A stretch of DNA of 59,367 nucleotides. Origin: a virus. Taxonomy: Duplodnaviria > Caudoviricetes. The notes below the pieces were generated by a model. The model saw nothing but the letters and a program-made list of their open reading frames with translations, ran no database searches and was not told the origin of the DNA. Below are positions 1 to 59,367 of this stretch, in pieces (within the stretch, counting starts at the first letter, position 1; every line of letters begins with the position of its first letter). A program made the translations under genes and the position numbers. The stretch spans positions 1 through 59,367 of the IMG/VR virus record IMGVR_UViG_3300037419_001059. One strand, given 5' to 3'.

Positions 1-172
1 CAGCAGGCCATCGGTGACGGGCCGAAGTCTGAGTAATTGATCCGTTGGATCAATTTGTGAAAGGTCGCGGCGGTGGTCGGCATCCTCCTCAAGGACTTCA
101 CGGGTTGCACGCCCAAGTTGGACGTGCGCTCGCTGCCGGATAACGCCGCCGCGTCCTCCATCAACCAGCGCC
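1..172. repeat. Terminal overlap, left copy (circularity signature)
   Basis: 1-172 matches 59196-59367 at 169/172 positions. The only mismatches are 44-46 GTT vs 59239-59241 ACC. Confidence 0.95.
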
Positions 173-1818
173 CGAACACGGGCGGCCTGGAGCCGGTGCG
201 GTTCCCCGACCCGGTGAAGGCCGTCGCCGCCAGCACCCGGTTCGTGTACCGCATCCCGATCCCCGACGCCTTCGCGGTCAACCTGACGCAAGGGTATTGG
301 TGGGAGTTTGCCGACCAAGACACCGACGTGGTGCGCGGGCCAACGGTGAACGATTCGTTCGAGCGGTACTATTACTGCTCCCCAAGCACGGGCCTGCGCT
401 TCGCCACCAAGGCCGATATCATCGCGGGCAACGGCCAGTCGAACAGCCATGCCATCGGCGTGCCGAGGCCGGGCCAACCGCCCGTCGTCACACCCGACAC
501 GACGAACTCGGCGCGTGAGCCGCCAGAGGACTCGGACGGTGATGGTGTGCCCGACACACCGGGTGCCTTCATCGCGGAGGTTTTGACCCGCGAGTACGTC
601 GTCACGTTCATAAACCAGTACGGCGAGGAGAGCGGCCCGAGCCCGGCGGCCGAGGCGACGGCCCCGACCGATGCCGTGTGGAACGTGACGAACATCCCTC
701 AGCCGGGGGTGTTCGACCGCGACTATGCGCCGATTACCACGATTCGCCTCTACCGGACGGTGACGGCGCTGAGCGGCAGCACCGTGTTCAACTTCGTCGT
801 GGATCTGCCTGTCGGCACCACGAGCTACGCCGACATCCTCAACGATCTCGTCGTGTCGGGCACGACCCAGCTTGAGACCACGAACACCGACCCGCCGCCG
901 CTCGGGCTCCAGGGGGTGGCATTGATGCCGAACGGCATCATGGTCGCGTTCAAGGGGAACAACCTCTACATCAGCGACAATTTCAAGCCGTGGTCCTGGC
1001 CGGTGGCCTACCAGCTCTCGGTCCAGCACTACATCATCGGACTTGCCGTCATCGGGAACACCTGCATCGTCTGCACGACGAGCAACCCGTGCTCGCTCAC
1101 GGGCTCGACGGGCGCCACCATGGCGCTGACGCAAAACGCCGCCCCGCTGCCCTGCTACAGCCGCCAGAGCATCGCCGTGGCGCCCGAGGGGGTCTATTGG
1201 GCGTCCTACAGCGGCCTCGTGCTGTTCACCCTGTCGGGCGCCAAGATCGTATCGGATGAGGTGATCGGACGAACCGCCTGGGCCACACAGTTCAACCCGG
1301 AGTCGATGGACTGTGTGTTCGCCTATGGCATGTACTTCGGCCGTCAACAGAAAGTCCTGCGGGACACCATACCCGTGAGCACCGTCGAAGTCGGGTTCGG
1401 CATCGGCGAAGGCTCCACGGTCAACTATGACGATCTGGCTGACACGGTGGCCTGCGGGCTCGACTTCGCGTCGGGTAAGCCCTGGATCATCAAGGGCGGC
1501 CAGATCTACGAGTGGCTGCCGTCCGGCACGCTGCTGAAGACGGTCATCTGGACATCGAAGCAGTTCCAGACACAGAAGCCGGTCAACTTCGGCGCCATCC
1601 AGGCGTACTACGACACCAGCGTTGAGCTTGCCGGCGTGCATGTGCGCTTGTTCGGGAACAACGGCGTGCTGCGCTGGGAAGGCGATCTGGCTGACCGTAA
1701 GGTCAAGCGGCTGCCGTCGTCCTTCAAGGACGACATCTGGCAAGTCGAGATCACCTCGAACACGATTGTCCATCGTCTCGCGCTCGGCCAGACGGTCGAA
1801 GATCTGAAGAACGTCTGA
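73..1818 (+). CDS. Tail tubular protein B / packaged-DNA stabilization (nozzle)-like protein
   Basis: 581 aa, beta-rich with propeller-like segments (NNLYISDNFKPWSWP, VYWASYSGLV). Lies just upstream of the tail, GNAT and internal virion genes, as in podoviruses. Confidence 0.65.
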   Translation: MVGILLKDFTGCTPKLDVRSLPDNAAASSINQRPNTGGLEPVRFPDPVKAVAASTRFVYRIPIPDAFAVNLTQGYWWEFADQDTDVVRGPTVNDSFERYYYCSPSTGLRFATKADIIAGNGQSNSHAIGVPRPGQPPVVTPDTTNSAREPPEDSDGDGVPDTPGAFIAEVLTREYVVTFINQYGEESGPSPAAEATAPTDAVWNVTNIPQPGVFDRDYAPITTIRLYRTVTALSGSTVFNFVVDLPVGTTSYADILNDLVVSGTTQLETTNTDPPPLGLQGVALMPNGIMVAFKGNNLYISDNFKPWSWPVAYQLSVQHYIIGLAVIGNTCIVCTTSNPCSLTGSTGATMALTQNAAPLPCYSRQSIAVAPEGVYWASYSGLVLFTLSGAKIVSDEVIGRTAWATQFNPESMDCVFAYGMYFGRQQKVLRDTIPVSTVEVGFGIGEGSTVNYDDLADTVACGLDFASGKPWIIKGGQIYEWLPSGTLLKTVIWTSKQFQTQKPVNFGAIQAYYDTSVELAGVHVRLFGNNGVLRWEGDLADRKVKRLPSSFKDDIWQVEITSNTIVHRLALGQTVEDLKNV

Positions 1819-2756
1819 TGGCCGCGACCAAAGACTATACGTTCACGACCGTCCCCGAGGCGGGGGCTGACGTGGATTCGCTGTTGCAGACTGTCAACGC
1901 GCTGCGGCAGAACATGCAGACGTTGATCGGGCAGCGCAACACCAACACGCCGAGCATCACCGATCAGGTGAAATCGGCGACCACGGACGTGCAGCGGCTC
2001 CAGAAGCAGTTCACGACGGAAGGTCAGTCAACGGCCGAAATCATCGACAGTGTGAAGGCCGAGGCGGACGGGATCAGCGCCAATGGCAAGCTGAAATTTA
2101 TCGCGACCGCCGGCCCGCAGGGGTACTTTGCCGAGTACAAGCTGGCGCTCAAGGTCGGCAGCGCCGTCTCCGGGTTCTCCGTACTTGCCAAGAAGAACGG
2201 GGACGGCACGTTCTCGTCCGCCATCTCGTTCACCGCCAATCAGTTCCAGCTCTTTGACCCGACGTTGAACAACGGGCAGGCGGTCGGCCCGACCCAGGTG
2301 TTCAATTACAGTTCCGGTGTGTTCCGGTTCAACGTGCCGGTGGAAGTTCTCGGCGAACAGATCGAAGTCGCTGGCTGCTCAAACAGCGTCCTCGTTACAA
2401 ATGACGACGCGAATGCCGTGCAACTCGAAGCACAGATCACGACGCGCCCGAACGCCCAGGTTGACGTATACGGCCAGTTCGACGGTCAGCCAGACGTTTC
2501 GTTTCCGTTCGAAGCAGGTTCAAAATTACTAAGTCTGGAACGCACGAACCCGGACGGATCAGTAACCGTTCTGCGCAACACGCGCGTTCAGTTTTTTGTC
2601 GTTCGAACGGATACAACTCAGAATATTTTCTTCTCACATACCCATCTGATGTATAGAGATACACCAACACCCGGCGTCAACGTTTATCGGCTGAAGATGA
2701 TCAACGGCGTTCCGCAGGGGCCTCTGATCCTCAACGTGGTGGAGCGCCATCGGTGA
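1818..2756 (+). CDS. Tail fibre / host-specificity-related protein
   Basis: 312 aa with an N-terminal coiled coil and a GFSVLA...SAISFTANQFQLFDP segment reminiscent of phage tail-tip domains. Coupled by a TGATG overlap. Confidence 0.5.
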   Translation: MAATKDYTFTTVPEAGADVDSLLQTVNALRQNMQTLIGQRNTNTPSITDQVKSATTDVQRLQKQFTTEGQSTAEIIDSVKAEADGISANGKLKFIATAGPQGYFAEYKLALKVGSAVSGFSVLAKKNGDGTFSSAISFTANQFQLFDPTLNNGQAVGPTQVFNYSSGVFRFNVPVEVLGEQIEVAGCSNSVLVTNDDANAVQLEAQITTRPNAQVDVYGQFDGQPDVSFPFEAGSKLLSLERTNPDGSVTVLRNTRVQFFVVRTDTTQNIFFSHTHLMYRDTPTPGVNVYRLKMINGVPQGPLILNVVERHR

Positions 2757-3244
2757 GGGACCGCATCCATATCGGCGACGAGGAAGCCGTGCTTGCCGGG
2801 CGCCGCGTTATGGCGCTCGCCGGGGGTGCCGTCTACAACCCCGAAGGCGAGCGCTGCATCGCGCGCTACGTCAATGGCGTGTTCGTCGGTGGCGTCGTCT
2901 ACAGCAACGCCACACAGACCTCCCTGGAGATGCACGTCGCCGGGGTGCGGCGCGGCTGGCTCAACCGCGACCTCCTATGGGTGGCGTTCGACTTCCCGTT
3001 CGTGCAGCTCGGTCTCAAGAAAGTTTTCTGCCGTATCCAGGCGTCCAATACGGAAGCGCTCCGGTTCAATGCCAGCCTCGGTTTCAAGGATGAAGCAGTA
3101 TTGAAGGATGTGTATCCAGACGGTGACATGATTATACGTTCAATGTATAAGGCAGATTGCCGTTTCTTGAACATAGTCGCTCGGACGATACGTAGACGCG
3201 AGGTTGTCGGTCATGGGGAAGCAGAAAGCACCGGCAGCGCCTAA
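2753..3244 (+). CDS. GNAT-family (RimJ/RimL-like) acetyltransferase
   Basis: N-x-x-A-x-x-F-N-x-x-LGFKDEA motif. Typical position before the internal virion genes. Confidence 0.75.
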   Translation: MRDRIHIGDEEAVLAGRRVMALAGGAVYNPEGERCIARYVNGVFVGGVVYSNATQTSLEMHVAGVRRGWLNRDLLWVAFDFPFVQLGLKKVFCRIQASNTEALRFNASLGFKDEAVLKDVYPDGDMIIRSMYKADCRFLNIVARTIRRREVVGHGEAESTGSA

Positions 3245-4364
3245 TTACGCGCCGATCATCGCGGCGCAGACGCAGGCTGCGACCAATTCGCAGAACTTGG
3301 CGAACCAGCAGTTTGCCTGGGGTCAGCAGCAGTTCGCGAAGAACAGCGCCAACACCGACCAAGCGGTTGCCGGCGCCAACCAGACGGCGGCGCTGAACAC
3401 CGGCTACGCCGCGCAGGACCGCGACCGCTACGTTCAGACATACCAGCCGCTGGAAGACGAGTACATTGCCAACGCGCAGAAGTACTCCGACCCGACCCAG
3501 GTCAACAGCCGGGCGGCAGCGGCAGCCGGCGACGTGTCGCAGCAGTTCGACGTGGCGCGCGGCAACGCCCAGCGGCAACTTGAAGCCTATGGCGTGGACC
3601 CGACACAGACGCGGGCGGCGGCGCTCGATCTCGGCACCCGCACCCAGGAAGCGGCGGCCCGCGCCAGCGCCGCGAACACGTCGCGCCGCCAGGACGCGCT
3701 GACCGGGCAGCAGATGCTGGGCGCCGCCATTCAGCAGGGCAATACGACGGCCACACGGGGGCTTCAGGAAAGCCAGCTCGGGCTCCAGGCAGGGCAGACC
3801 GGCGTCAGCGAAAATCTCGCCACCACGATCTCCGGTGCGTCCACGCTGGGCACGGCGCCGACCTATACGGGCCTCGCCAACTCATCGCTGGCAGGCTCTG
3901 CCGCCACGACCAACCAGCAGTACCAGAACAATCTGGACCGCTACAAAGCCAATCAGGCGTCCAGCTCGGGGCTCGGCGGCGCGCTCGGTTCAATCATCGG
4001 GTTCGGTGCCAAGAGCTACGACAGCGGCGGTAGGATCGGGAATGCCATCGCCGGACTGTTCGAGGACGGCGGCGCGGTGCCCGATGATCAGGAGCTTGCC
4101 GCGCAGTCGCATGCCGGCATCAAGGTTACGCGCGAGATGTCGCCCTCCCGTGGGCTCCAGACCGACGACGTGCCGGCCCGCCTCAACGCGGGCGAATTCG
4201 TGCTGCCGGCCGAGACGGTGGCGTGGATCGGCCAGAAGCACCTTCAGGGGCTGATCAAGAAGTCCGCCGAGGAGCAGGCGCAGGCCAAGGCCCGGCCCCG
4301 CATCGCGGCACTGCCGGTGGAACGCCCGCGCGTCGATACTGGCGCCCTACAGGTTCGGAGGTAA
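3213..4364 (+). CDS. Internal virion (ejection) protein
   Basis: Ala/Gln/Gly-rich with a C-terminal DDVPARLNAGEFVLPA motif. ATG 3213 follows GAGG. Confidence 0.6.
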   Translation: MGKQKAPAAPNYAPIIAAQTQAATNSQNLANQQFAWGQQQFAKNSANTDQAVAGANQTAALNTGYAAQDRDRYVQTYQPLEDEYIANAQKYSDPTQVNSRAAAAAGDVSQQFDVARGNAQRQLEAYGVDPTQTRAAALDLGTRTQEAAARASAANTSRRQDALTGQQMLGAAIQQGNTTATRGLQESQLGLQAGQTGVSENLATTISGASTLGTAPTYTGLANSSLAGSAATTNQQYQNNLDRYKANQASSSGLGGALGSIIGFGAKSYDSGGRIGNAIAGLFEDGGAVPDDQELAAQSHAGIKVTREMSPSRGLQTDDVPARLNAGEFVLPAETVAWIGQKHLQGLIKKSAEEQAQAKARPRIAALPVERPRVDTGALQVRR

Positions 4365-4370
4365 GTCGCG

Positions 4371-7283
4371 ATGGGTATGGGTCAGGAGCTGAAGGATTTC
4401 GTCAGCGGCTTCAGCTCGGGCTACAAGCTCGCGACGCCGACCGAGGGCGAGCTGAAGGCGAAGCAGGAGCGGGACCGGCAGGACGCAATCTCCAAGCTTG
4501 CCGAGAATGACCAGTCCGCGGTCCCCGGCCGCCTGGGGGTCGCGCCGCACCTCTACAAGACCGGCGATGATGGCTCGGGCACCGGCTCGGGCACCGGCTC
4601 AGGCAAGGTAGGCCGCAGCCTGCCGGTGTTCGCGACTGACCTGGGCGAGATGGCGCCTTACGCGCAGTCGATCAGTAAGGTGGAGAGCGGCGGCCGGTAC
4701 GATGCCCTCGGGCCTAAGACGAAGACCGGAGACCGCGCCTATGGCCGTTATCAGGTCATGGGCGCCAATATTCCAAAGTGGACGCAGAAGTATCTCGGCA
4801 GGTCCATGACGCCGGATGAGTTCCTTAAGGACCCGGAAGCACAGGATAAGGTGTTTGCCGGCGAGTTCGGCAGCTACATCAAGAAGTACGGCAACCCGGC
4901 CGATGCCGCGTCGGTGTGGCACTCCGGCAGGCCGCTCGCGACGGCAGCTAGGCTGGGCCTGTCTGACGGGAACATGAAGACCACGGACTACGCCAAGGCC
5001 GTGGTCGGCTCGCTGCCGCGCAGTGCTTCATCGGCGCCCGCTGTGCAACCCGCCCTTCCCCCAACCGCCGTGAACGCCGCGCCAGCGCCGATTCAGGGCA
5101 TCCCCATGCCCGCGCCGGGTGGCCGGACCATGGTCTTGCCGGGTGCCCAGGCGGAGGCCGACCAGGGCGACACCTACAACCCCGGCGACGACAACCAGCC
5201 GACGCAGCTCGCGGCGGATGGCGGCGCGATCATGCCCGTGATGCAGATGCCACCCGACGACCAGATGCAGGACGCCGCGCCGCCCCTGCCGCCGCGGCGC
5301 CCGTCCGACGCCGAGCTTCAAGTTGATCCGCAGATCAATTCACAGCCGGATTACCACCGCATCGCCGGCACGCACGAGGCCATCGACGCCGGTATGGGCG
5401 CGATCAGCAGGGACCTCGAAAATCCAGATGCCGCCCTACCGCAAGCCGGGTCTGATTATCATGGTCGAGTTGCTGCGTTCCATCGCGGCGATGATGCGGC
5501 GACGCCGCAGGAAATCCGACAGATCGATCAGACCATCGACCCTGACAACCGGCTCGTCGCCGACGCGAAGGCCGTCGCGCGCCTGAATGCCGGATACAAA
5601 TACTTCTTGATGCAGGGCGACCCCGACAGAGCCGAGAAGTACGCCAAGTCGATCCTTGGCTACACCAAGCAAGCCGTGAAGTATTACGGTGCGCAGGCCG
5701 AGCAGAAGCTGCGTGCCGGCGATATCGCGGGCGCCGCCGAGGATATCCAGAAGGGCCACAACGAGGTGCCCAACGGGGCGTCGCTCTACATCGACAAGGT
5801 AGATCCGAAGACAGGTAAGGTCGATTACCGCGTTCTGGACGAGGATGGCGACTTGACCGAACGTGGTCAGGCTTATGCCAACCAGCTCATGTCGGTCGCG
5901 ACCGGCATGCAGAACGGCAGTGAGTGGCTGAACCAGATCGCGCAGGGGCGCCAGAACTCGCTGACCGCCGCGCAGAAGGCCGCCGAGAAGCGTCGGGCTG
6001 CCGACGAGGGCGCGGCCAACTCGTTCTATGGCGGGTCCGACATGGACCTGATCAACAAGATGTCGCCCGAGGCCCGCAAGGGCTTCGACGCGGCCTCCCC
6101 TGCCCTCAAGCGGCAGATGCTGGCCGACCTCGCCAACCGCGAGAACGCGGCGCGGGCGCAGACCAAGGACGACCAGAAGCAGGCGTATTACCAGCGTAAG
6201 CAGGATCTGGCGGACACGAAGGCGCAGGACCAGCAGGACTACGCCGGCCACGCGGCTGCCATCGAGAACGCGCGGGATGCCCTGATCGCGCAGCGCAATG
6301 ACGACCCTTACGACACCGAGAAGATGCAGGCAGCGCAAGCCGCCTACGACAAAGCGCTGAGCGACGCCCGTGCCTGGGCGGGTGCCGGCCCGAACCGTGC
6401 GGCGTTCGTCCCGCAGCTCGAACGGCTCGGCAAGTCCGGTGGCGGCGTCGGCGGTGGCGCGGCGGGCGGGACCGGCGGTGGCGGCAAGGGTGGCACGAAG
6501 GACGAGCGCAACATCGCCGGCCTGGACCGCCAGTACACCATGTTCGAGAAGGCCGCGCAGCGCGAGAAAGACCCGGAGCGGCAGAAGCAGCTCATGGCCG
6601 CCCTGCCCCACCAGAAGGCGCAGATCGAGTTCGCCAAGCACGACACCGGCTTTGACGACAAGATCACGCCCGATGTCGAGGCACAGGCCAGCCGGATCAT
6701 CGGCCTGAAGGAGGGTGCCGAGCCCGACGACAAGCAGTCCACGCAGCTCAACGAGTACCAGAACGCCATCCGTGGCATCTTGCAGGGCGACAATGACCTC
6801 ACGCCGAAGCAGGCTGCCGACCTCGCCAAGCTCGCGGTGAAGACCGGCAAGATCAATCTCGACAACGGCCTGTACAGCATCAACGGGTCTGACCCGATCC
6901 GCATGTCACCGCGTGCCGTGTCGTCACTCGCCCGTCTGGTGAAGATGAACAAGCCGGCCGAGCAGCCCACGGCGACGACGCGCAACCCGTTCAGCCCCGA
7001 CCGCCCATCGTCCATCCCGACGCCGGACGAAGCCGATACGGCGAACGCCAGGGCACAGCGGGTGCAGGCCCGACAGGAGGATGCCGCGCCGCGCCGTCGT
7101 CGCGACAAGAGTGCGGAGTACGATCAGCTCCGTTCACAGATCGATGACAGTACATTCGAGCGGATGAAGCAGTTGTCCGGCAGTACAGACGGGCGCGTGC
7201 CTCTTGCTTATCTGCGTAGAGTTGTGAGAGAACAGGCCGGTAAGCGGGCTCGTGTTGTAGATCCCGACCCCAATATGCCGTAG
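4371..7283 (+). CDS. Internal virion protein with lysozyme-like/lytic transglycosylase domain
   Basis: 970 aa. ISKVESGGRYDALG...AYGRYQVM resembles the transglycosylase catalytic Glu and G-x-x-Q motifs. Confidence 0.7.
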   Translation: MGMGQELKDFVSGFSSGYKLATPTEGELKAKQERDRQDAISKLAENDQSAVPGRLGVAPHLYKTGDDGSGTGSGTGSGKVGRSLPVFATDLGEMAPYAQSISKVESGGRYDALGPKTKTGDRAYGRYQVMGANIPKWTQKYLGRSMTPDEFLKDPEAQDKVFAGEFGSYIKKYGNPADAASVWHSGRPLATAARLGLSDGNMKTTDYAKAVVGSLPRSASSAPAVQPALPPTAVNAAPAPIQGIPMPAPGGRTMVLPGAQAEADQGDTYNPGDDNQPTQLAADGGAIMPVMQMPPDDQMQDAAPPLPPRRPSDAELQVDPQINSQPDYHRIAGTHEAIDAGMGAISRDLENPDAALPQAGSDYHGRVAAFHRGDDAATPQEIRQIDQTIDPDNRLVADAKAVARLNAGYKYFLMQGDPDRAEKYAKSILGYTKQAVKYYGAQAEQKLRAGDIAGAAEDIQKGHNEVPNGASLYIDKVDPKTGKVDYRVLDEDGDLTERGQAYANQLMSVATGMQNGSEWLNQIAQGRQNSLTAAQKAAEKRRAADEGAANSFYGGSDMDLINKMSPEARKGFDAASPALKRQMLADLANRENAARAQTKDDQKQAYYQRKQDLADTKAQDQQDYAGHAAAIENARDALIAQRNDDPYDTEKMQAAQAAYDKALSDARAWAGAGPNRAAFVPQLERLGKSGGGVGGGAAGGTGGGGKGGTKDERNIAGLDRQYTMFEKAAQREKDPERQKQLMAALPHQKAQIEFAKHDTGFDDKITPDVEAQASRIIGLKEGAEPDDKQSTQLNEYQNAIRGILQGDNDLTPKQAADLAKLAVKTGKINLDNGLYSINGSDPIRMSPRAVSSLARLVKMNKPAEQPTATTRNPFSPDRPSSIPTPDEADTANARAQRVQARQEDAAPRRRRDKSAEYDQLRSQIDDSTFERMKQLSGSTDGRVPLAYLRRVVREQAGKRARVVDPDPNMP

Positions 7284-7289
7284 GCCGAC

Positions 7290-10200
7290 ATGCCCGAGAT
7301 TGATCTTGCTACGCTCCCGGTGGATCAGAACTACCGGGACGCGTTGGCACCGGAGCCAGGTATCTCGGGTTCGGACTATGGGCGGGCCGCCGCCGCAGGC
7401 GCCTACGGCGTCGTGGGCTCGGCGGCGGCCGGCGTCGATTACTTGGCCGACACGGACGATGATAGCGCGCTGAAGAAACTGCGCCATTACGCCGATGAAG
7501 GCGCCAAGGCCCAGGTCGAGCAGATGTCCCCGGCGGCGCGTGAAGCGCTCAACGCCGGCTTCCTGCCGGGCAGCGACAAGTCGATCTGGTCGCCGGACGT
7601 GTCGATTGCGTCCTCGCTCGGGCTGAAGCTCGCGAACGCCTCCCCTTCCCTCCTGGCGAGCATCATCCCCGGCGGCATCGTGGCCGGCGTGGCCCGTGGC
7701 GCTCTGACCGCCGGGGCGGCTGCGGCGGCCGGTACGGCCGCATCGGGGACCGCCAACGCCGCGATGATGGGCGGTCAGGTTTACGACGACATCGAGAAGT
7801 CGATCCTCGACGCCAAGGACGACGACCTCAAGTCCAGCTCGCCCGTCTACAACGCCCTGCGCAAGGACTATTCCGAGGGCGTCGCTAAGAAGGTCCTGGT
7901 GGAGACGGCTGCCGGCAACAAGCCGCTGCTCGCCGCCGCTGTCGGCGCCATCACCGATCAGTTCGGCGCGGCTGCGGCGACGGCCAAGCGGGCTGTCGGT
8001 CAGGCCGGGGAAGGCATCTTGAAGGGGGCGCGGAAAGGGCTTGTCGAAGAGTCCGCCAACGAGGCCGCGCAGAATGCCACCCAGGAGGCGCTGACCCAGC
8101 AGGGACAGGTCCAGGCCGGCACCGGGCAGTGGGATTACCTGAAGATCCTTGAGCAGGCCGCACAGGGTGCCACGGTCGGCGGCATCATGGGCGGTGTCGT
8201 CGGCGGCGCCACGGGCATCGGCGGCCGGCAGGGCGAGGGCGCGTCAGGCTCTCAGCGGGTGCCGGCCACGGCCCAGGAGACGACCCAGGACGCGGCGCGT
8301 GTCGGCGTCCTGGCCATTGACCCGGCCGTGGCAGAGGCGGCCGGCGGGCGCCAGCAGAGCCGGGCGGCGCTCGACGCCGTGGACGACGCCATGTCGTCGC
8401 TGGAGAAGGCCCGCCCGGTGCCGGTTGACCCGGCCATCGCCGCTGCGGTCAAGGGCGGCGATCAAGTTGATCCACGGAGCACTTTCGAGCCGCAGAACGA
8501 GTTTGAGGCCGACCCGGATGCGCTGCCGGCCGAGGAAGCGGCTGCCGACCAGCTTCCCGCCGCTCAGCCCCCCGCACCGCAGGAGCCGACGCCCGCACCG
8601 ACCCAGGAACCCCAGGAGCCCGCCCAGGCTGCCCAGCAGCAGGCGCCGGCCCCCGAGGAGCAGCCTGCCACCCAGCCGGAACCTGCGCCCGCTGTAGCCC
8701 CCTCTGAGGCGCCGGAAACGGCAAGCGCGAGATCGCCGACCGCGACGACCATCGACCTCGATACGTTTCTCGACAGCGAGCAGGCCGAAGCGCCCTCCCC
8801 CGCCCCGCGCGTGCTCCAGGCGACCGAGCAGCCAGCCGCGCCGACTGAACCGGCCGCGCCCCGTGCGGTCGGCCGCATCTCGGCGGCCGAAGCCACGCGC
8901 ATCGCCAAGGGCGAGGGCGATGCGGTCACGCTGTCTACGAACCCGGAAGACTGGAAGAAGCAGAGCGACCGGACCAGCGTCAAGAACCTCGCCGAGGCGA
9001 TGGTCAAGGTGCGTGGCGACGACGCCCCGCAGTGGGCGCGCGACTTCCTCGACGCCTATGGGCAGAAGCGCGTCGGTCAGGGACCGGCGGCGAAGGCGGC
9101 CCGTGAAAAGCTCCTGGCGGCCCGGCAGGCGCTGCACGACGAGACCCAGGCCCGCGTGCAGCAGGGCGTGGCCCGGCGCGAGACCACGAACGAGGCCCGC
9201 GACCGGCAGGCCCAGGAGAAGCGCTACCGCGACGGCACCGAGGCCGAGCGGCTGATCAGCGCCACGACCATGCCCCGGCTGGCCGAGCGCGCCGTGCCGA
9301 AGGCGGTGCGGGAATACGCGGCCTCGCTCCTGTCAAAGGCGAAGCAAGCCAAGATCAGCCTCGACGGCAATACTGACGATGCGCACATTCTGCACCTGAA
9401 GACGGCGCAGGAAGTCGCCCGTGCCGGTTCTACCAAGGAACAGCTTCAGCAATTCATCGCGGACGACTTCCTGCTGCGCCAAGGTGCCGGCGAGGAGATC
9501 TCTGCACGTCGTCGCGCCGAGGCGCTTAAGTCTGAGCGGAGCTATGACGAAGTACAGAGGGCGGGGCCGGAAGTCCGCGAAGGTGCAGACGCCTCCGAAG
9601 CCTACGACGCGCAGGGAGCCCACGCAGAGGCTGCCGTTGAACCACAGGACACCCTACAGGGCCGCAGTGAAGATCACGCTCCTGCGGAACCTGTATCTGA
9701 GCCAGTTCAACAGCCGGTAGTTGATCCAACGGATCAATTCGTGGTGGTCGGCCAGAACAAGGCCGGGCAGTTCAAAGTCGAGAGCCGGGGCCGCCGCAAG
9801 GTGGCTGAGCGGAAGGCTGCGGCGAAGGAGGAGCCGGCACCGTTCAAGGTCGCGCCCGGCCTGAAGGCCGTCAAGTTCAAGGACGGCTACACCATCCTGC
9901 CGGCCGGCGCTCGGCCCGAGGAAGGCGTCAACCGCGCCGGGCTCAACTTCACTATCCACAAGGATCGCATCACGGTCGATGGCTCGTTCCTGCACTCTGC
10001 CGACCGGGGCAAGGGCAACGGCGTGCGCATGTACGAAGCCCTCGCCAAGCTAGGCCAGGAGCGTGGGCTGCCGATCTACAGCGACTACGACATCTCACCC
10101 GAAGCCAAGCGCATGTATGACCGCTTGGCGTCTCGCGGCTACGACGTTGAGTACGCTGCTGGGCTCGCGCTTGACGAAGACGGGAACCGCGCAGGTTTCC

Positions 10201-13200
10201 GGGGCAAGTACGTGCCGGGCGAGGAAGACAGTTTCACGGTTCGGGTGAACCCGAAGCAAGAGCTGCGCCCCCTCCCCTACGGCAGCAACACACCGCGCGC
10301 CAGGGAGGCCGACCCGGATGTCGAGCGCCATGCCCGCGAGCTGGCCCGGCTGCTCGGCGACGAGCCGGAGGTGGACACTGACAACCTCATCGTGTCGCCG
10401 CGCACGGGCGCCACGACGCCGATCCTGCACACCGCGACGCTTGAAGCCTACCTCAAGGACATCAACCACAAGGCTGCCGGCGGCGTCGCGGCCGAGGTGA
10501 ACCCGTTCATAGCCCGGCGGCTCTTGCAGCTCATCCCCGACGTGAAGGTGCATACCGTCTCGGTCGAGGGCATGCGGGCGCTGACCGAAGACCTTGCCGG
10601 CAAGGGCGGCTTCCCCAAGCAGATCAGTGGCTACTATGACCCGGTGACGCACGAGATCGTGCTGCGCGATCAGGATGTTACCGAAGCCGAGCTGTCGCAC
10701 CTCATCATCCACGAGGGCCTGCACGCCGCGTTCATGCGGACCATCGAGCGGGTGCCGGCAGCCAAGGCAATGATCCGCGACCTGATGGACAGGGCGCTCG
10801 CCCATTACGGCGAGAGCTTCCGGTCAGAGTACGGCATGACCAACGAACACGAGTTCGTGTCGGAGGCCATGTCGTCGCGCGACTTCCAAGAGAAGCTTGC
10901 GCGGGTGCCGGTGAGCGAGAGCTTCAACGCCCTGCCGATCAAGAACGTGTGGGCCTACTTCGTCGCTGGCGTGCGCAAGTTCCTCGGCCTCAAGCCGGTG
11001 CAGACCTCCGCGCTCGACGCCGCGCTGCGGGTCGGTGCCGTGCTCACGGACCTGCGCACCGCCCACGATCTGCCGTCCACGCCGCGCACTGCCTACGCCA
11101 TGCCCCACGCGCTCGGGGCGGACACCATCCGCGAGGGCTTCAGCGACGTGAAGGGCGCCACCCGCCTGATCGCGTCAGCCAAGGTGCTGCGCGTCCGCAC
11201 GCTCGATCAGATCCGGCAGGGCTACCGCAACCTGTTCCCGGCTGGCGACGGTGGCGACCACCTCGACAAGCTCGTCGCTGCGATGCAGCGGCAGAACGCC
11301 TACGTGGAGGGCAAGTCACGCGAGGCCGATACCCATGTGCAGGACTTCCTGAATCTCAAGAAGTCCAACCGCAAGGTGGCCGAAGACTTCGCCGTGCTCG
11401 CCAACGACGTGACCATGGCCGACCTCAACATGCTCAAGGGCAGGCCGACCCTGGAGGAGATGCAGGCGGCCAACAAGCACGTCTACGGCTCGGACCCGAA
11501 GAAGTCCGACATCTCCATGGCGTGGCAGAGCAAGGCACAGCACGCCGCGTTGCAGCGGCGGTTCTCGGCCCTGCCGGACGCCGTGCAGGACCAGTTCATC
11601 CGTGCGGCGAAGTTCTACCGGGACACGCAGAACGAGACGGCGCGGACCTTCGTCACGTCGATCCTCGATCAGATGGCGCCCGACATGAACGTGGCGCAGC
11701 GTACCGAGATCGCCGCCAAGGCACTGGCCGGCACGCTCAACGAGGACGATGCCAAGGCGCTCAACAACGCCACGCTGTTCAATGCCCTGAAGGATGCCGG
11801 CGCGGCCCGCTCGATCAAGGGCATGTACTTCCCGCTGAAGCGCAACGGCGACTACGTGGTGCGCACCCGCGACATCATCACGGACACGATGGGCGGCACG
11901 GAAGTCGAGCCCGGCGTCGTGGAGTTCTCAGCCGACAGTGACAAGACATCGCGCAAGCAGGCGGAAGCGTTCGCCAAGGCGACGGGCCTGAAGGTGACGC
12001 GGATCGCCAAGCGGTACTACGACCACCAGACCGGGGAGCTGATCAAGGCTGCCGACGCCGAGAAGGACAGCCGCGTCGCCTACCGCGTCACCGTGCAGAC
12101 CCATGGTCTGCATATGTTCGAGAGCGCCAGGGAGGCGGAAAAATTCGTCCGCGAGGCACGGCGCGATGGCGACTTCCACGCCGTGGAGGACGTGCAGCAC
12201 CGCCAGGACATGGAGGCGCGGGGCGACCTCTCCTATTCGCAGCTCTCGGCGCTCACCCGCAGCGTGGATCAGCGGGACGACCTGACGCCGGGGCAGCGGG
12301 AGATCCTGAAGACCGCCATCGCCCAGGCCGCCATCCGCCAGATGTCGGGCAACCGCATCCAGAAGCACTCGCTCGCCCGCAAATTCTACGCGGGCGCCAG
12401 CGAGGATTTCGGGCGCAACATGCTCCAGTACGCCACGGCGCAGAGCAACTATATCGGCAAGCTCAAGTACATGCCGACCGTGCGCAACCACCTCGGCGAG
12501 ATGGAGAAGCACGCCAATGCCTTCAACGCCGACAAGTCGCAGCTCCGCAAGACGGTGTTCGAGGAGGTGAAGAACCGCGTCAACGCTAACGATGCGGGGA
12601 TCAACAAGCCGAGCAAGTTCGTCCGCGACCTGATGCAGGTCGCGATGCTGTCGAAGCTTGCCGGCCCGTCGCACTCGATCATCAACGCCGCGCAGCCGCT
12701 GATGACGACGTATCCGGTCCTGGCCGGCGAGCACGGCCCGATGTCATCCGCCCTGGAGCTGGGCAAGGCGATGAAGGACATCGGGGCTTGGCGCACATAC
12801 GGCACGGGTGTCGTGAATAGCTACAAGGCCGCCCGCCACATCTTCGAAACATCGATCGATGCGACCGACCCGGTTGGATCGATCCGTAAGAAGCTCGCCC
12901 GGCAGCCGGACGGGGCGGCGCTCGGCCGGGTGCTCAGCGAGTTGCAGGAACGCGGGGCGCTCGGCGACGGCGCCGAGTTCGAGATGGCTGCTGCAATCGC
13001 CTCCGGCAGGGGCGTGGCGGGCACGGCTATCGCCAAGGCGGATCGGATCTTCCGGCAGGCTCCGGCCGCCGTAGAGGCCGTGAACCGCGCAGGATCGGCC
13101 GTCGCGGCGTACCGGCTCGCCCGGCGCAAGGGGATGTCGGAGGAGAAGGCCACACAATACGCGTTCGACACGGTGCAGAAGACGCAGTTCGACTATTCCG

Positions 13201-14266: not shown

Positions 14267-14313
14267 TATAAGGTAGCCGTGTTGATCCATGGATCAACAC
14301 GGCCCAGGAGGAT

Positions 14314-45632: not shown

Positions 45633-45689
45633 GTTGATCCACGGATCAACAGGTGGTATTGGTCGGCAGCTCTATTGGAGGTTGCCGGT

Positions 45690-48711: not shown

Positions 48712-48908
48712 CACAGCCGATCCGCAGCGGTTACGGTCGTGCTGATCCACGACCCGTCTTTGGTCGGCCCGGCGACGACCGCGCACACGTTGTCGTCAAT
48801 GTCGGGCTCGCCATGTGGCGTGATCCTTTGTGTGATCTCGACGTGTTCGCCGTCCTCAAGGATGACGACACCCTCGCTCAGATCGACCCGCCGCACGTTC
48901 GCAGACAT
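48711..48908 (-). CDS. Hypothetical protein between terS and terL
   Basis: 65 aa; the RBS comes from palindrome variant 48913. Confidence 0.6.
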   Translation of the reverse strand: MSANVRRVDLSEGVVILEDGEHVEITQRITPHGEPDIDDNVCAVVAGPTKDGSWISTTVTAADRL

Positions 48909-48928
48909 AATATTGCTCCATGGATCAA

Positions 48929-49535: not shown

Positions 49536-51656
49536 TTGTCAGCGCTACAGGTCAACAGAGGCGGACTGATCCAGTCGATGTCTCCCGACGAGTTGTCGGA
49601 GAAGGAACGGCAGGATCGAGACGCCAAATACGGCCAGCCGCTTGAGGAGCAGGCGGCCTCGTCGCTCGCCGCCTATATCCAGCGCGTCTGGTACGTCATG
49701 CGCGACCACCGCTCGTCGCAGGCCGGGTGGAATAGACGCCTGATCGACGCGCAGCGGGCGTTCAACCGCGAGTACAGCCCGCAGAAGCTCTCGGAGATTC
49801 GCGAGTTCTCCGGCTCCGAGGTGTACGCCGGCATGGTCGCCACCAAGTGCCGGGGGGCCACGGCGCTGCTGCGCGAGGTGTACCTTGACGTGGGCCGCCC
49901 CTGGGGCCTGGACCCGACGCCGGAGCCGACGCTGCCCGAGCCCATCCAGCAGGCCATACAGGAGCTGGTTGAGGCCGAGGTGCGCCAGTTGGTGGCATCC
50001 GGCCAGCAGATCGACCCGATGGCGATACAGGACCGCCTACAGGGGCTGGTGGACCACGCCCTGGCGGCGGGCAAGCGCAAGGCCAGGGAACAGGCCGAGC
50101 GCGCCGAGGACGCGGTTGACGATTACCTCGTGGAGGGCGGGTTCTACGAAGCCCTCGCCGACTTCCTCGTGCATCTGCCGATCTTCCCGTTCGCCTGCAT
50201 GAAGGGGCCAGTGGTCCGCGTGGTGCCGAGCGTGAAATGGACGCCGACGCCGCAGGGTCCGAAGGCGCTGCAACAGAACACCGCCAAGATGTTCTGGAGC
50301 TGCGTCAGCCCCTTCGACATCTATTTCACGCCGGGCGTCAGCGACATCCGCGACGGCGACGTGATCGAGATCAATCGGTTCACACGCGCGGACCTCAATT
50401 CGCTCATCGGCGTGCCGGGCTACGTCGAGGAGAACATCCGCGCCGTGCTGCGAGACTATGGCACGCGAGGCTGGAAAAGTTGGACGGACCCGACCGACAG
50501 CGAGCGGGCCATCGGCGAGAACCGCGAGAGCCCGTCCACCAACCTCTCGGGCATCATCGACTGCATCGAGTTCCACGGCTCCGTGCAGGGCAAGCTGCTG
50601 CTGGAATGGGGGTTCACCGATGATGAGGTGGACGATCCCGATCTCGACTATTTCATCCAGGCGTGGATGATCGGGCGCTACGTCATCAAGGCGCAGATCC
50701 ACCCCTCCCCCAGGAAGCGTGCCCCCTACTTCGTTACCAGTTTTGAAAAAACGCCGGGCACCCCGGTCGGCAACGCCCTGCCCGACATCCTCGGGTCCAT
50801 CGAGGATGTGAGTAACGCCACGCTGCGCGCCATGGTCAACAACATGGCGATGTCGTCCGGCCCGCAGGTGGTGATCAACGATGACCGGCTGGCGGCCGGC
50901 GGCAACAGCGACGAGCTGTTCCCGTGGAAGCGCTGGCACACCCAGGACAACCCGCTGAACAGGGCGGCGTCGGGTCTGGCGCCGATCACGTTCTACCAGC
51001 CGAACGACAACAGTGCGCAATATTTCGCGATCTTTGAGCGCCTGACGGCGCTGGCCGACGACCTGTCGGCCATCCCGCGCTACGTCACGGGCGCGTCCAA
51101 CACGGGCGGCGGCGCTGGCCGTACTGCGTCGGGTCTGGCGATGTTGATGGGCAACGCCAACAAGATCCTCAAGAACGTCTGCGCGAACATCGACCGCGAC
51201 GTGATCGAGCCTCTGATCCAGATGCTCTACGACTTCCTGATGCTCACCGACCAGACCGGCATGTTCCGGGGCGACGAGAGCATTCAGGTTCGCGGCGTGC
51301 AGGTTGCCGTGCAGCGGGAGACGAACCGGCAGCGGCAGATGGAGCTGTTGCAGGCCACGAACAACCCGACAGACCTTCAGATCATGGGGCCGCTCGGGCG
51401 CCGGGCGCTCCTCTACGCCGTGTCCCAGGAAGTCGGCCTGCCGGGCGAGGAGATCGTGCCGACAGAGGACGAGCTGAAGGACAAGATGCAGCAGGCCGCC
51501 GTCGCCGCTCAGCAGCAGGCGCAGGTCGCGCAGCAACAGCAGATCGAGCAGGACGGGCAACGTTCGCTCGCGCCCCCGACAGGCGTCGCGCCGAAGGGGG
51601 CCAACACGGATCTCGGGCGGCCCGAGATGGCGACCACACAAGGGATGGTGAATTGA
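49536..51656 (+). CDS. Portal protein
   Basis: 706 aa; VSPFDIYF and GRTASGLAML motifs and a Gln-rich tail. First gene of the head module. Confidence 0.8.
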   Translation: MSALQVNRGGLIQSMSPDELSEKERQDRDAKYGQPLEEQAASSLAAYIQRVWYVMRDHRSSQAGWNRRLIDAQRAFNREYSPQKLSEIREFSGSEVYAGMVATKCRGATALLREVYLDVGRPWGLDPTPEPTLPEPIQQAIQELVEAEVRQLVASGQQIDPMAIQDRLQGLVDHALAAGKRKAREQAERAEDAVDDYLVEGGFYEALADFLVHLPIFPFACMKGPVVRVVPSVKWTPTPQGPKALQQNTAKMFWSCVSPFDIYFTPGVSDIRDGDVIEINRFTRADLNSLIGVPGYVEENIRAVLRDYGTRGWKSWTDPTDSERAIGENRESPSTNLSGIIDCIEFHGSVQGKLLLEWGFTDDEVDDPDLDYFIQAWMIGRYVIKAQIHPSPRKRAPYFVTSFEKTPGTPVGNALPDILGSIEDVSNATLRAMVNNMAMSSGPQVVINDDRLAAGGNSDELFPWKRWHTQDNPLNRAASGLAPITFYQPNDNSAQYFAIFERLTALADDLSAIPRYVTGASNTGGGAGRTASGLAMLMGNANKILKNVCANIDRDVIEPLIQMLYDFLMLTDQTGMFRGDESIQVRGVQVAVQRETNRQRQMELLQATNNPTDLQIMGPLGRRALLYAVSQEVGLPGEEIVPTEDELKDKMQQAAVAAQQQAQVAQQQQIEQDGQRSLAPPTGVAPKGANTDLGRPEMATTQGMVN

Positions 51657-51681
51657 TCCACGGATCAGAACGGAGGTTTTC

Positions 51682-53489: not shown

Positions 53490-53553
53490 CCCGCCGGACG
53501 AATTGATCCATGGATCAAGGCGCCGGTTCACTCCAGCGCCTTGAGAGGGCACG

Positions 53554-54531
53554 ATGTCGTTTCCGGTTTCCAACACTCCCTACGGCCTGAACGCGGTCTC
53601 CCCGAACCCGCCCTACTCCGGGACCTTCATCCCGGAGATCTGGAGCGCGAAGTTGCTGGAGAAGTTCTACGCCTCCACCGTGCTCGCGGCGATCTCGAAC
53701 ACGGACTACGAGGGCGAGATCTCGGCGTTCGGCGACAAGGTGAACATCCGCACCCGGCCGACGCTGACCATCAAGAACTACTCGGCTGATCAGCCGCTGG
53801 AGTTCGAGCGTCCGTCCGCCCCCATCGTCACTCTGCTCATCGACCGTGGCAAGTACTTCGGCGCCATCCTCGATGACGTGATGAAGAAGCAGATGGACAT
53901 CGATGTCATCGGCATGTGGACCGATGACGCGTCCCAGCAGATGAAGCTCCAGGTGGACCGTGATCTCCTGCTGTACATGCTCGGGAAGGCGGACGCGAAG
54001 AACCGGGGCGCGCTCGCTGGCGCGATCTCGGGCTCGCTCAATCTTGGTGTGACCGGGACCCCGGTCAACGTCGCCGCCCGAAACCCCGGTGCCGGCGAGA
54101 CCGACGTGATCGAGTACATCATGCGAATGGGGCAGGCTCTGGACGAGCAGAACATCCCCGAGGAGGGGCGGTGGCTCGTGGTGCCGGCGTGGTTCGGCTC
54201 GTACATCAAGCAGAGCGACCTGCGCAACGCCGGCCTGTCGGGTGACGACAAGTCGATGTTGAGAAATGGCCGGATGGGCATGATCGACCGGTTCTCGATC
54301 TACTCGTCCAACCTGCTGCCGACCGCCGCGACTGCGGGCGGCGGTCTGGCCGCAGGCGAGTACGTCGTCTACGCCGGGCACCGGCACGCGACCACCTTCG
54401 CGGCCCAGGTGTCCGAGATGGAGTCGATCCGCTCGGAGAGCACCTTCGGTGACATCATTCGCGGCCTCAACGTCTATGGGTTCAAGGTGCTGGACCCGAC
54501 GTGCTTGGTCGAGGGTATCGTCACCCAGTAA
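53554..54531 (+). CDS. Major capsid protein
   Basis: FIPEIWSAKLL...NTDYEGEI...GDKVNI...RGLNVYGFKVL motifs typical of P22/N4-type coat proteins. Confidence 0.9.
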   Translation: MSFPVSNTPYGLNAVSPNPPYSGTFIPEIWSAKLLEKFYASTVLAAISNTDYEGEISAFGDKVNIRTRPTLTIKNYSADQPLEFERPSAPIVTLLIDRGKYFGAILDDVMKKQMDIDVIGMWTDDASQQMKLQVDRDLLLYMLGKADAKNRGALAGAISGSLNLGVTGTPVNVAARNPGAGETDVIEYIMRMGQALDEQNIPEEGRWLVVPAWFGSYIKQSDLRNAGLSGDDKSMLRNGRMGMIDRFSIYSSNLLPTAATAGGGLAAGEYVVYAGHRHATTFAAQVSEMESIRSESTFGDIIRGLNVYGFKVLDPTCLVEGIVTQ

Positions 54532-54547
54532 TTGATCCATGGATCAA

Positions 54548-57927: not shown

Positions 57928-58458
57928 GTGGACCCGTCCAGTGCGATCAACATCATCAGCGGCCTCACGGGGGTTGTCGGTACGATCGCTGCGGTGATCG
58001 GGTTCACGTACAAGCGGGGCGGCGAGGAAGCCGTCTCGCAACAGAAGTTGACCGCCCTGCAAAAGCAGATCACTGACTTTCAGGAGCTGCTGAAGGATTT
58101 CACGAACGCTGCCGAGAAAAAGCACGACGCGCTCGACAATAAGCTTGAGAAGCGTATCGTGGAGGTTGATGCCAAACTCAAAGATGTGCATGAGCGCATC
58201 GAGCGACACGCGAAGGAATTCGATGCGAAGTTCGCAGCCTATGGTGCGTTCGAACGTTTGTTCTCCGATAGGCTCTCAGAGGAGCGGCAGTTCCTTTTAG
58301 AGAACTATATGAACCGCGGTGATATTCTGAGGATGGAGACAAAGCAGCAGAAGAGCCAGGAAGAGATCTTCAAGCATTTCGACAAGCTTGAAGCGAAACT
58401 GGATCACTACATCGAACAGATCGGCGTACAGCGATCTGAAGCCAGGAGAGCGACATGA
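57928..58458 (+). CDS. Membrane-anchored coiled-coil protein
   Basis: N-terminal TM segment followed by a coiled coil. GTG start after AAGGGA. Confidence 0.55.
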   Translation: MDPSSAINIISGLTGVVGTIAAVIGFTYKRGGEEAVSQQKLTALQKQITDFQELLKDFTNAAEKKHDALDNKLEKRIVEVDAKLKDVHERIERHAKEFDAKFAAYGAFERLFSDRLSEERQFLLENYMNRGDILRMETKQQKSQEEIFKHFDKLEAKLDHYIEQIGVQRSEARRAT

Positions 58459-59231
58459 CAAATTCCATCGAAGGTTTCGAAGATCACGAGATCTCGCACC
58501 TCTCCCCGAGGATGCGCGAGAAGCTTGCCGCCGAACGCAATCGCGGCAAGGCATCGGTCAGCGATGCGCAGAAGGCCGCCGACTACAACCGGCAGATTCA
58601 GGAGCGGGCGCGCGAACATAAGCGCCTGGACCCGGAGGAGATCCGCAAGCAGCGTGAGCATGCGCAGACGCGCCGGGCCGAGTTGGCCGCCGAGCAGCAG
58701 GCCGAGAACTCGACCGCCAACCTCCAGAAGGAGGCCGAGGACGCCCACGAGAGCCTTACCGGCGTGAACTACACGCCCGATCCGGCTGCGGCTGCCGCCG
58801 CGAGGGAATTGGTCCGCCAGCGCGTGGAGCAGGCACGTCGTGTTGGCCTTCAGCCGAACCAGGGCTTCATCGGCCATCCCGAGGCGTCCGAGGAGCAGGC
58901 GCTCGCCGCCGAGGCCAACGCCGCCAAGGAGGTGCAGGACCGCGCCGACGCCGCCAACTACGACGCGGCGGGCACCTACCAGGGCCACACGGACGACGTG
59001 GTGGCCCCGGCCTACGACGAGTGGGGCAACCCGCTCGGCGACGGCAACGAGAACGAGCAGGCCGGCGGCGTCGAGGAGACCCAGGAAGGCAACGGCCAGC
59101 CCGAGTACGTGCCGGAGCTGACCGCGACCGATCTGATGGGTGGCGTCGGCGAGCCCGAGCAGCGCCCGCGCCGTCGTGGTCGTCCGCCGAAGGGGCAGCA
59201 GGCCATCGGTGACGGGCCGAAGTCTGAGTAA
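58455..59231 (+). CDS. Acidic hypothetical protein with C-terminal AT-hook-like RRRGRPPK
   Basis: 258 aa; the motif is visible in the translation. Confidence 0.6.
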   Translation: MTNSIEGFEDHEISHLSPRMREKLAAERNRGKASVSDAQKAADYNRQIQERAREHKRLDPEEIRKQREHAQTRRAELAAEQQAENSTANLQKEAEDAHESLTGVNYTPDPAAAAAARELVRQRVEQARRVGLQPNQGFIGHPEASEEQALAAEANAAKEVQDRADAANYDAAGTYQGHTDDVVAPAYDEWGNPLGDGNENEQAGGVEETQEGNGQPEYVPELTATDLMGGVGEPEQRPRRRGRPPKGQQAIGDGPKSE

Positions 59232-59367
59232 TTGATCCACCGGATCAATTTGTGAAAGGTCGCGGCGGTGGTCGGCATCCTCCTCAAGGACTTCACGGGT
59301 TGCACGCCCAAGTTGGACGTGCGCTCGCTGCCGGATAACGCCGCCGCGTCCTCCATCAACCAGCGCC
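59196..59367. repeat. Terminal overlap, right copy
   Basis: Repeats 1-172, including the end of ORF 58455-59231 and the start of ORF 73-1818. Confidence 0.95.

Follow-up and report, generated by a model that had tools for sequence, protein, structure and literature searches.

What reads a palindrome that recurs from one end of a phage genome to the other? The virus record IMGVR_UViG_3300037419_001059, analyzed here at its full length of 59,367 bp and hereafter called the window, carries the sequence TTGATCC-NN-GGATCAA and close variants of it along the whole genome, and a sequence-only reading of this DNA had proposed that one dimeric protein coats or roadblocks the genome at these sites, an interpretation that the analysis supports in part. 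The array is phage-specific, non-random, and under strong DNA-level selection. As for its reader, we favor a stoperator-like global DNA-binding regulator, at a probability of roughly 0.4.

The palindrome occurs in 11 perfect copies in the window and in none of 100 dinucleotide-preserving shuffles. Allowing up to two mismatches raises the count to 32, whereas the shuffles average 0.09 and never exceed 1, so that the scan against shuffled sequence that had been suggested for this motif left essentially no background; with up to three mismatches there are 36. Three further copies, at 37, 9721, and 59232, combine perfect arms with a 3-base center. The 172 bp at either end of the record (1-172 and 59196-59367) match in all but the three bases at the center of the palindrome, which are GTT in one and ACC in the other. 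The genome is accordingly circular or has terminal redundancy, with a length of ~59,195 bp, and the palindromes at 37 and 59232 are one locus, of which the population or the assembly carries two center variants. After merging, we counted 13 unique perfect-arm loci (11 + 2) and 34 to 35 credible loci in total, in agreement with the ~34 loci, 13 of them with perfect arms, of the sequence-only reading. Matches with three mismatches at 12589, 15046, and 28889 look like chance, and the copy at 17866 is doubtful because a relative keeps nearly the same letters there rather than its own motif. Half-sites standing alone were rare (3/52).

The largest gap between sites, from 37 to 5323, is 5.3 kb, as had been noted; no site lies in 39831-41547, which contains an AT-rich stretch. 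Many copies adjoin a stop codon, an arrangement claimed earlier and seen again in the site flanks, or provide the Shine-Dalgarno sequence of the next gene. The center is biased relative to transcription: for the 21 AC/GT-centered sites the sense strand reads AC in 16 and GT in 4, the strand being unclear for 1. With the previously reported 17 of 21, the count is 16 to 17 of 21, and the bias itself stood (binomial p = 0.007 for 17/21 and 0.027 for 16/21).

Evidence for a reader came from two relatives found by searching IMG/VR with the family-A DNA polymerase (PolA). G001 (56.6 kb) and G002 (58.6 kb, classed as a provirus) are collinear with the window at ~72% nucleotide identity over 38 to 39 kb, and neither has a copy of the window motif at ≤1 mismatch. 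Both carry instead TTGTTCC-NN-GGAACAA (≤2 mismatches), in 22 copies in G001 and 25 in G002, with another 8 and 5 having a 1-base center, i.e., 30 in each. One base pair in each arm distinguishes the window motif from the sister motif, the change in one arm mirroring that in the other. Of the 18 window N2 sites within blastn-aligned segments, 11 align with a switched motif in G001, G002, or both, and local alignment added four orthologous switched sites (59232/37, 9721, 23100, and 14282), for a total of 15. The window motif itself was retained in G004 and G005, two fragments of a 92 to 94% identical phage from another metagenome.

The switch extends into coding sequence. Two of the peptides that the motif had been said to encode, VDPQIN and LIHGS, are present in the encoded proteins. 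At site 5323, the 970-aa virion protein reads LQVDPQINSQ in the window and LQDVPGNNSA in the relative; at site 27301, KRLIHGSTI in the PD-(D/E)XK nuclease of the window corresponds to HRLFRGTPI in that of G001. Orthologous in-gene sites differ by in-place substitution, with length unchanged, inside reading frames, showing that DNA-level selection on the motif overrides protein sequence at these sites. Because both arms changed in concert at orthologous sites, there must be a sequence-specific trans-acting reader whose specificity has changed, and mirrored in-place substitutions at 15 or more dispersed sites rule against mobile-repeat insertion and against pairing alone. As judged from the sequences, the sites imply a putative co-evolving, sequence-specific factor acting on DNA; we infer a protein that binds to duplex DNA and affects transcription.

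The 28-bp perfect palindrome previously noticed around site 14282 is real, and it is the sole window site whose complementarity reaches 6 bp past the arms. The site is extended (27 to 30 bp) in the window, G001, and G002 alike, with differing flank letters, and here the motif probably forms the core of a local hairpin.

Genome and metagenome collections were then scanned with a PolA alignment, the roughly 185 metagenomic relatives being covered with 10-kb flanks; a first scan of genome contigs with PolA alone had found nothing. Dozens of relatives (PolA ~38 to 49% identical) mostly carry their own version of the motif. The closest cultured relatives are Rhizobium and Pseudomonas podophages, first the Rhizobium phage RHph_TM3_14A group (PolA 46% identical) and next Pseudomonas phage KPP25 (30%). 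The complete genome of RHph_TM3_14A has the densest array, with 57 copies (≤3 mismatches) of GTTACCT-N3-5-AGGTAAC in its first 50 kb; no palindromic array was found in the 39 kb of KPP25 examined. Distant relatives share the outer GTTAC/GTAAC, and the inner bases (CCT, CCC, CCG, CTC, or CGCC) and the spacer are lineage-specific. In five host or bin genomes (4 to 8.8 Mb), the GTTACC-type motif occurred on the phage contig only (≤1 mismatch) and is therefore not a host repeat, which answers for the relatives a control that the sequence-only reading had called for. The family was met with Rhizobium, Bradyrhizobium, and Pseudolabrys and in many soil and freshwater metagenomes; among relatives in isolate or bin assemblies, several are separate phage-sized contigs and others are integrated.

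These observations can be accommodated by a regulator as follows. The palindromes would be cis-acting DNA sites for a phage-encoded sequence-specific factor with two-fold symmetry that co-evolves with them. A single regulator, probably a dimer with a flexible linkage, would bind the two 7-bp arms of double-stranded DNA with its two recognition modules. Some 35 places, most of them short intervals separating a stop codon from the ribosome-binding site that follows, would be occupied in this way, and the bound regulator would modulate or block transcription genome-wide. Arm divergence between sister phages would then lead to lineage-specific regulatory or immunity specificity. We counted in favor of this regulator the enrichment, the rarity of lone half-sites, the concerted switch, and the phage-only occurrence, all without an RNA-hairpin signature, as well as the tyrosine integrases of the window and G002, the center-dinucleotide bias relative to transcription, and the perfect site at 42074, which is placed downstream of a promoter-like match and ahead of a small operon's first gene.

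Several observations weigh against it. Pfam searches of the 78 distinct open reading frames (ORFs) of the window detected no repressor-type domain, in keeping with the earlier remark that no CI-type repressor is evident; the one weak match, to HTH_23, falls in ORF 18034-18489, for which no counterpart was detectable in G002. PHROGs likewise showed no repressor family, many of the small ORFs matching no family at all. RHph_TM3_14A, with its dense array, has no tyrosine integrase, and 29 of its 57 sites are inside genes; together with the variation of the spacer, this also speaks against a role tied to lysogeny alone. Some relatives with the same replication genes have other repeats or no clear array. 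The spacer varies inside one genome (N2/N3 in the window, N1/N2 in G001 and G002, and N3-5 in the GTTACC-type arrays), which is unusual for rigid dimers. Lastly, 20 arrays with 526 sites showed 668 single-arm changes and 108 double changes, of which 54 were compensatory and 54 non-compensatory, a compensatory share of 54/108 where one third was expected. The variable spacer and the half of double changes that are compensatory favor some role for a folded form, or flexible recognition.

Among known systems, three come closest: the Cluster O palindromes and the Cluster K start-associated sequences (SAS and ESAS), neither with an assigned function, and the Cluster A stoperators; the window array follows the same logic, with different sequences, lineage, and site architecture. 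The 17-bp palindromic repeat of Cluster O (Corndog and relatives) likewise occurs in >30 copies with 7-bp inverted arms and a short variable center, between genes, near starts, and in genes, at positions conserved among relatives; its copies bound indels, and the motif is absent from host genomes (PMC4351075). Cluster O phages are, however, unrelated siphoviruses of Actinobacteria, with the center fixed at 3 bp, and no sequence or phage homology with them was found, arm sequence and spacer being different. Their description names no binding protein or function and reports no arm switch, whereas the window family has both an arm switch between sister phages and a variable spacer (PMC4351075). 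Cluster A stoperators resemble the window sites in being spread over the whole genome (up to ~30) and mostly oriented with transcription (PMC6550527; PMC9283540). The stoperator analogy drawn earlier gained from the fact that the stoperator motif, too, differs between related phages together with the repressor (PMC6550527; PMC9283540). Stoperators are asymmetric and bound by a monomeric two-domain repressor, in contrast to the two-fold symmetry of the window sites. Like the window sites, Cluster K SAS/ESAS stand a few bases before starts and include the Shine-Dalgarno sequence, and the ESAS are imperfect inverted repeats with a variable spacer and a subcluster-specific consensus for which RNA pairing was not supported (PMC3203893). 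Unlike them, SAS are asymmetric and confined to non-structural genes, whereas window sites are also found in late and long genes.

A literature search by motif letters and general terms, with subscription-only papers and supplementary files outside its reach, found no description of these arrays. Multiple dispersed palindromes bound by one regulator are also represented by the phiC31 conserved inverted repeats and by KorB/ParB-type plasmid operators; in contrast to those systems, the window ORFs scanned with Pfam and PHROGs held no ParB-, KorB-, or phiC31-repressor-like protein.

The main rival, which we rate as unlikely, makes each palindrome an inverted iteron pair for the phage's own PrimPol-helicase, a Pri-Rep-like self-loading initiator. 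Its tethered winged-helix domains would bind both arms, the helicase-primase would load or prime about every 1.5 kb or be titrated, and an arm change would isolate the replicons of sister phages. A structure model of the last 230 residues of this protein (mean pLDDT 86) matched the SCCmec Cch helicase (Foldseek E value, 6.8e-4) and SaPIbov1 Rep (E value, 0.02), with weaker matches to winged-helix DNA-binding domains; the Foldseek match is a modest one (TM score, 0.36). SaPI Reps read short, oppositely pointing iterons through a winged helix in a highly flexible C-terminal domain (PMC9371898), and with such flexibility a variable spacer would be tolerated. The window protein shares with SaPI Rep and SCCmec Cch the fused primase-helicase layout and the similar C-terminal domain, and SaPI origins hold oppositely oriented repeats; yet SaPI iterons, 6 to 12 in number, form a cluster that surrounds an AT-rich center directly downstream of rep, whereas the ~35 window sites are dispersed and gather neither beside the gene nor at the AT-rich stretch. 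The PrimPol-helicase was present wherever a relative's locus extended far enough, and its winged-helix part diverges most between the window and its sisters (identity of 0.44 to 0.47, versus 0.69 for the core; 0.88 between G001 and G002). The density of one site per 0.9 to 1.5 kb and the retention of sites in long genes would also suit a DNA-metabolic role. Among GTTACC-type relatives, however, winged-helix similarity did not track motif class, the winged-helix/core ratio being 0.36 to 0.65 in same-class pairs and 0.9 to 1.05 in some different-class pairs, and the relatives that have this helicase and no clear array also speak against iterons. From the modeled fold, we regard the C-terminal winged-helix-containing domain as a lead, i.e., a candidate reader of the sites.

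The second candidate, as a lead only, is a 78-aa HNH/NUMOD-like small protein, the resemblance being one of language-model features only. It is 50% identical between the window and the sisters and ~90% between the sisters, and it was found in few relatives; a homologue search returned only itself. The conserved 155-aa core protein was considered and set aside: its model is confident (pLDDT 90), and it had neither a PDB fold match nor a sequence match. The 413-aa core protein, without a sequence match in PDB, is suspected from its Cys cluster, Pro/Gln-rich tail, and acidic end to be like single-stranded-DNA-binding protein, and the 260-aa protein encoded at 34001-34783 gave one lead, a DUF3150-like cluster.

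Quite unlikely, in our view, are other DNA transactions, in which the sites would serve recombination and module exchange, act as targets or stop signals for nucleases of the phage itself (HNH, VRR-NUC, and PD-(D/E)XK), or mark the DNA for condensation or packaging. Several homology breakpoints between the window and its relatives coincide with sites, as is the case for Cluster O repeats (PMC4351075), and the proteins encoded by the window include three that are HNH-like along with two structure-specific nucleases. A related strain (run X2) lacks exactly the gene flanked by sites 38396 and 38694, the junctions coinciding with these sites, and in related strains (coded runs X2 and X3) the gene at 38903-39223, adjoining site 39227, is replaced. 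The junctions at 38382 and 38694 fall in or within 14 nt of a palindrome and that at 39223 is 4 nt away, whereas that at 38903 is not at a palindrome. Since the sites lie at gene boundaries anyway, such coincidence is expected. Moreover, exchange between lineages would favor shared rather than diverging motifs, and there was no sign of nicks or cuts.

Quite unlikely, too, is that the palindromes function as mRNA hairpins that sequester the Shine-Dalgarno sequence, with translation coupled to that of the upstream gene or governed by an RNA-binding protein. Many copies sit exactly between a stop codon and the next start, such that the left arm adjoins the previous stop and the Shine-Dalgarno sequence, 0 to 14 nt before the start, is supplied by the right arm or by what directly follows it. 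In RHph_TM3_14A, 13 of the 57 sites end ≤20 nt from a start, and the 3' part of the loop is rich in purines for 10 of these 13 versus 18 of the other 44. Spacer length varies as that of a loop would, and one relative, L222 (453-19624), retains a single full arm with a fixed spacer, two bases before the ATG in 12 of 15 copies; this arm reads CATGTGTTACCT-N4-AGGT on the opposite strand and resembles the Cluster K start-associated sequences. On the other hand, G.U mismatches do not outnumber A.C mismatches on the sense strand (window, 4 G.U and 10 A.C; RHph_TM3_14A, 10 and 15), most departures, namely the 668 single-arm changes, break pairing, and the commonest window variant places an A.G mismatch in mid-stem. 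Pairing in the flanks beyond the arms is at chance level (0.23 to 0.27), so complementarity stops at the arm ends. Half of the RHph_TM3_14A sites are in genes, in-gene sites are conserved and switched together, and pairing alone leaves identical stems at all sites unexplained. The overlap with the Shine-Dalgarno sequence thus looks like co-option of the motif and not its purpose, because 29 of the 57 RHph_TM3_14A sites fall within genes, in-gene sites are conserved and switched, G.U pairs are not preferred, single-arm changes predominate, and complementarity ends with the arms. Site flanks contain no T-run as would be found at an intrinsic terminator, and the terminator-like matches in 36-46 kb are other hairpins. 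Mimicry of the 16S rRNA 3' end, or pairing with it, was also rejected: in the 16S rRNA of two Bradyrhizobium hosts, the arms match only scattered 5- to 7-mers, at chance level, and the GTTACC-type arm is absent from the 16S 3' end.

A generic host repeat, a mobile REP/MITE-like element, or chance and composition is hardly conceivable, even though GATC is frequent in all genomes compared (408 to 475 copies) and lone copies of the 16-mer are present in many unrelated viral contigs, since shuffles yield next to none, the relatives' motif is on the phage contig only in host and bin genomes, and, unlike with REP/RAYT-type palindromes, orthologous sites differ by in-frame substitutions without length change and no transposase was found among the window ORFs scanned with Pfam and PHROGs.

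The sites and the main genes of the window, mapped from family searches (Pfam and PHROGs) of its ORFs, are collected in the following table.

Table. Palindromic sites and principal genes of the window (a site described as perfect has both 7-bp arms intact; strand "." for palindromes)
Coordinates	Strand	Feature	Remarks
37-53	.	site	perfect arms, 3-base center GTT; same locus as 59232-59248; orthologous N1 sites in G001 and G002
5323-5338	.	site	1 mismatch; within 970-aa virion gene; switched motif at aligned position in G001 and G002
8467-8482	.	site	2 mismatches; within 2273-aa virion gene; switched motif in G001 and G002
9721-9737	.	site	perfect arms, 3-base center; within 2273-aa gene; orthologous N1 sites in G001 and G002
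14276-14303	.	site	palindrome 14282-14297 extended to 28 bp; 3' of 51-aa ORF 14111-14266 (after 2273-aa gene); ends 10 bp 5' of 80-aa HNH-like ORF 14314-14556 (same strand)
17866-17881	.	site	doubtful, 2 mismatches; in dCTP-deaminase-like gene; nearly same letters in G001
19173-19188	.	site	perfect; within PrimPol-helicase gene; not in relatives
23100-23115	.	site	1 mismatch; between 155-aa and 413-aa genes; orthologous G001 site 18191
25886-25901	.	site	perfect; 3 nt before HNH gene start
27301-27316	.	site	perfect; within PD-(D/E)XK nuclease gene; protein change given in text
28143-28158	.	site	1 mismatch; within PolA; not in relatives
29791-29806	.	site	1 mismatch; 117 nt upstream of PolA
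32048-32063	.	site	variant, sense-strand right arm with GGAG; 2 nt before ATG
34798-34813	.	site	perfect; before 260-aa gene
35026-35041	.	site	GGAG-arm variant; 4 nt before ATG
37248-37263	.	site	GGAG-arm variant; 7 nt before ATG of likely start of 359-aa ORF
37372-37387	.	site	2 mismatches; early region
38396-38411	.	site	2 mismatches; left boundary of gene absent from related strain (run X2 skips 38382-38694)
38694-38709	.	site	GGAG-arm variant; 5 nt before ATG; right boundary of X2 indel
39227-39242	.	site	GGAG-arm variant; 3 nt before ATG
39815-39830	.	site	1 mismatch; gene junction
41548-41563	.	site	1 mismatch; in 40.4-42.1 kb, no gene by GC3 criterion
42074-42089	.	site	perfect; 42 nt downstream of sigma-70-like promoter match, 14 nt before ATG
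42376-42391	.	site	2 mismatches; overlaps stop codon; 12 nt before next ATG
42595-42610	.	site	perfect; overlaps stop codon, directly abuts next ATG
44484-44499	.	site	1 mismatch; near integrase and putative attP region; conserved in G005
44606-44621	.	site	weak, 3 mismatches; abuts TAA
45057-45072	.	site	2 mismatches, both at outermost pair
45634-45649	.	site	perfect; 6 nt after terminator-like hairpin, before tail-fiber-like gene
48913-48928	.	site	GGAG-arm variant; between phrog_36773 gene and large terminase gene
51653-51668	.	site	1 mismatch; overlaps portal stop codon
52361-52376	.	site	1 mismatch; near-identical phage G005 mismatched at another position
53503-53518	.	site	perfect; before major head protein gene
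54532-54547	.	site	perfect; abuts major head protein stop codon
57900-57915	.	site	perfect; late-gene junction; conserved in G004
59232-59248	.	site	second assembly copy of locus 37-53; center ACC
4371-14111		970-aa and 2273-aa virion proteins	family search
18718-21765	-	PrimPol + DUF927 helicase (Pri-Rep-like), 1015 aa	LigD-type Prim-Pol and DUF927 domains
27682-29673		family-A DNA polymerase (PolA)	family search; leftward replication block
33717-33953	-	78-aa HNH/NUMOD-like small protein	language-model features only
42808-44121	-	tyrosine integrase	marker of temperate lifestyle
47236-48786	-	large terminase	family search
49536-51656		portal	family search
53554-54531		major head protein	family search

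The window phage is a temperate soil phage, and its DNA is present in soil metagenome runs, with no RNA run listed as containing the phage; the record has 63% G+C and is estimated to be 98% complete. Its leftward replication block also encodes an SNF2 helicase, HNH, VRR-NUC, and PD-(D/E)XK nucleases, a DUF2201 protein, and a MoxR-like ATPase. A megablast search with 12 kb (window 30000-42000) returned no near-identical phage record, and no tRNA was found in the window. Rfam gave nothing at gathering score over the whole window, the two sub-threshold matches in 40.3-45.6 kb being at chance level. The 2273-aa and 970-aa virion proteins, which were tested as a phage RNA polymerase reading hairpin promoters, had no relative among PDB sequences.

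Other features of the window stood out in their own right. The dCTP-deaminase-like gene at 17688-18149 (minus strand), with Pfam DCD on the C-terminal part, has one in-frame stop at 17970-17972, for which a pseudogene, an error in sequencing, and read-through are all conceivable explanations. Five small paralogous early proteins, all on the minus strand (29992-30246, 31552-31806, 33495-33713, 35066-35488, and 35916-36224), are scattered among the replication genes; they begin with a motif like MRL[AS]D[VI]KW, three end like ELACWLADKEP, and they belong to no Pfam family. A 418-aa class-I S-adenosylmethionine-dependent methyltransferase is encoded at 14673-15929 (minus strand), within the segment at 14.6-17.6 kb, which has no counterpart in the sister phages. 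The 1.7 kb at 40373-42103 are of lower G+C, contain no gene by the third-codon-position G+C (GC3) criterion, and hold an AT-rich run at ~40620-40700 and a 12-bp inverted repeat at ~41023-41075; a 220-bp block within them (41683-41899) is ~70% conserved in both sister phages, with flanks that are not conserved. This stretch could serve as an origin or in regulation, or it could encode a non-coding RNA.

Further repeats were seen in relatives. In RHph_TM3_14A (L132, MN988472.1, 19468-47854), a second repeat, GCGCACTCA, is present in 8 copies, always on the same strand, and it recurs in relatives L134, L135, L137, L138, L146, and L216; in the window, its forward 9-mer is absent and the reverse complement occurs twice. 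A distant relative, L142, has four tandem 11-bp units (GACCTATCATA) at 3281-3325, which look like an iteron-type origin, and four dispersed 9-mer copies. In KPP25 (L250, NC_024123.1, 25000-64113), the 10-mer TGTTACGAAA occurs 7 times, and there is a long tandem repeat of the CTGGGCTGGC type.

Phage-specific genome-wide repeat arrays are known in actinobacteriophages, where only stoperators have a known function, and the same kind of array is now seen in a widespread family of phages of Proteobacteria. New here are the "specificity swap" that has occurred in nature between sister phages, at shared sites and even where amino acids change as a result, and the series of arm variants over dozens of relatives. 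In these genomes, the motif marks gene boundaries and true start codons and is thus of use for annotation, and the TTGATCC and TTGTTCC arms provide an experimental handle for finding the protein that discriminates between them. If the reader is a new class of repressor or a replicative primase-helicase, it would explain how these genomes are controlled or copied and how immunity or incompatibility types originate. A broader proposition, which we consider unlikely, is that this large, mostly uncultured family of podophages with PolA and Pri-Rep marks its whole genome with "barcode" repeats read by the winged helix of the primase-helicase or by another factor. Were it true, the genome would be replicated or primed from dozens of sites, or distinguished from host and rival DNA, and the spelling of the repeats would mutate together with their reader, giving rise to new incompatibility or immunity groups.

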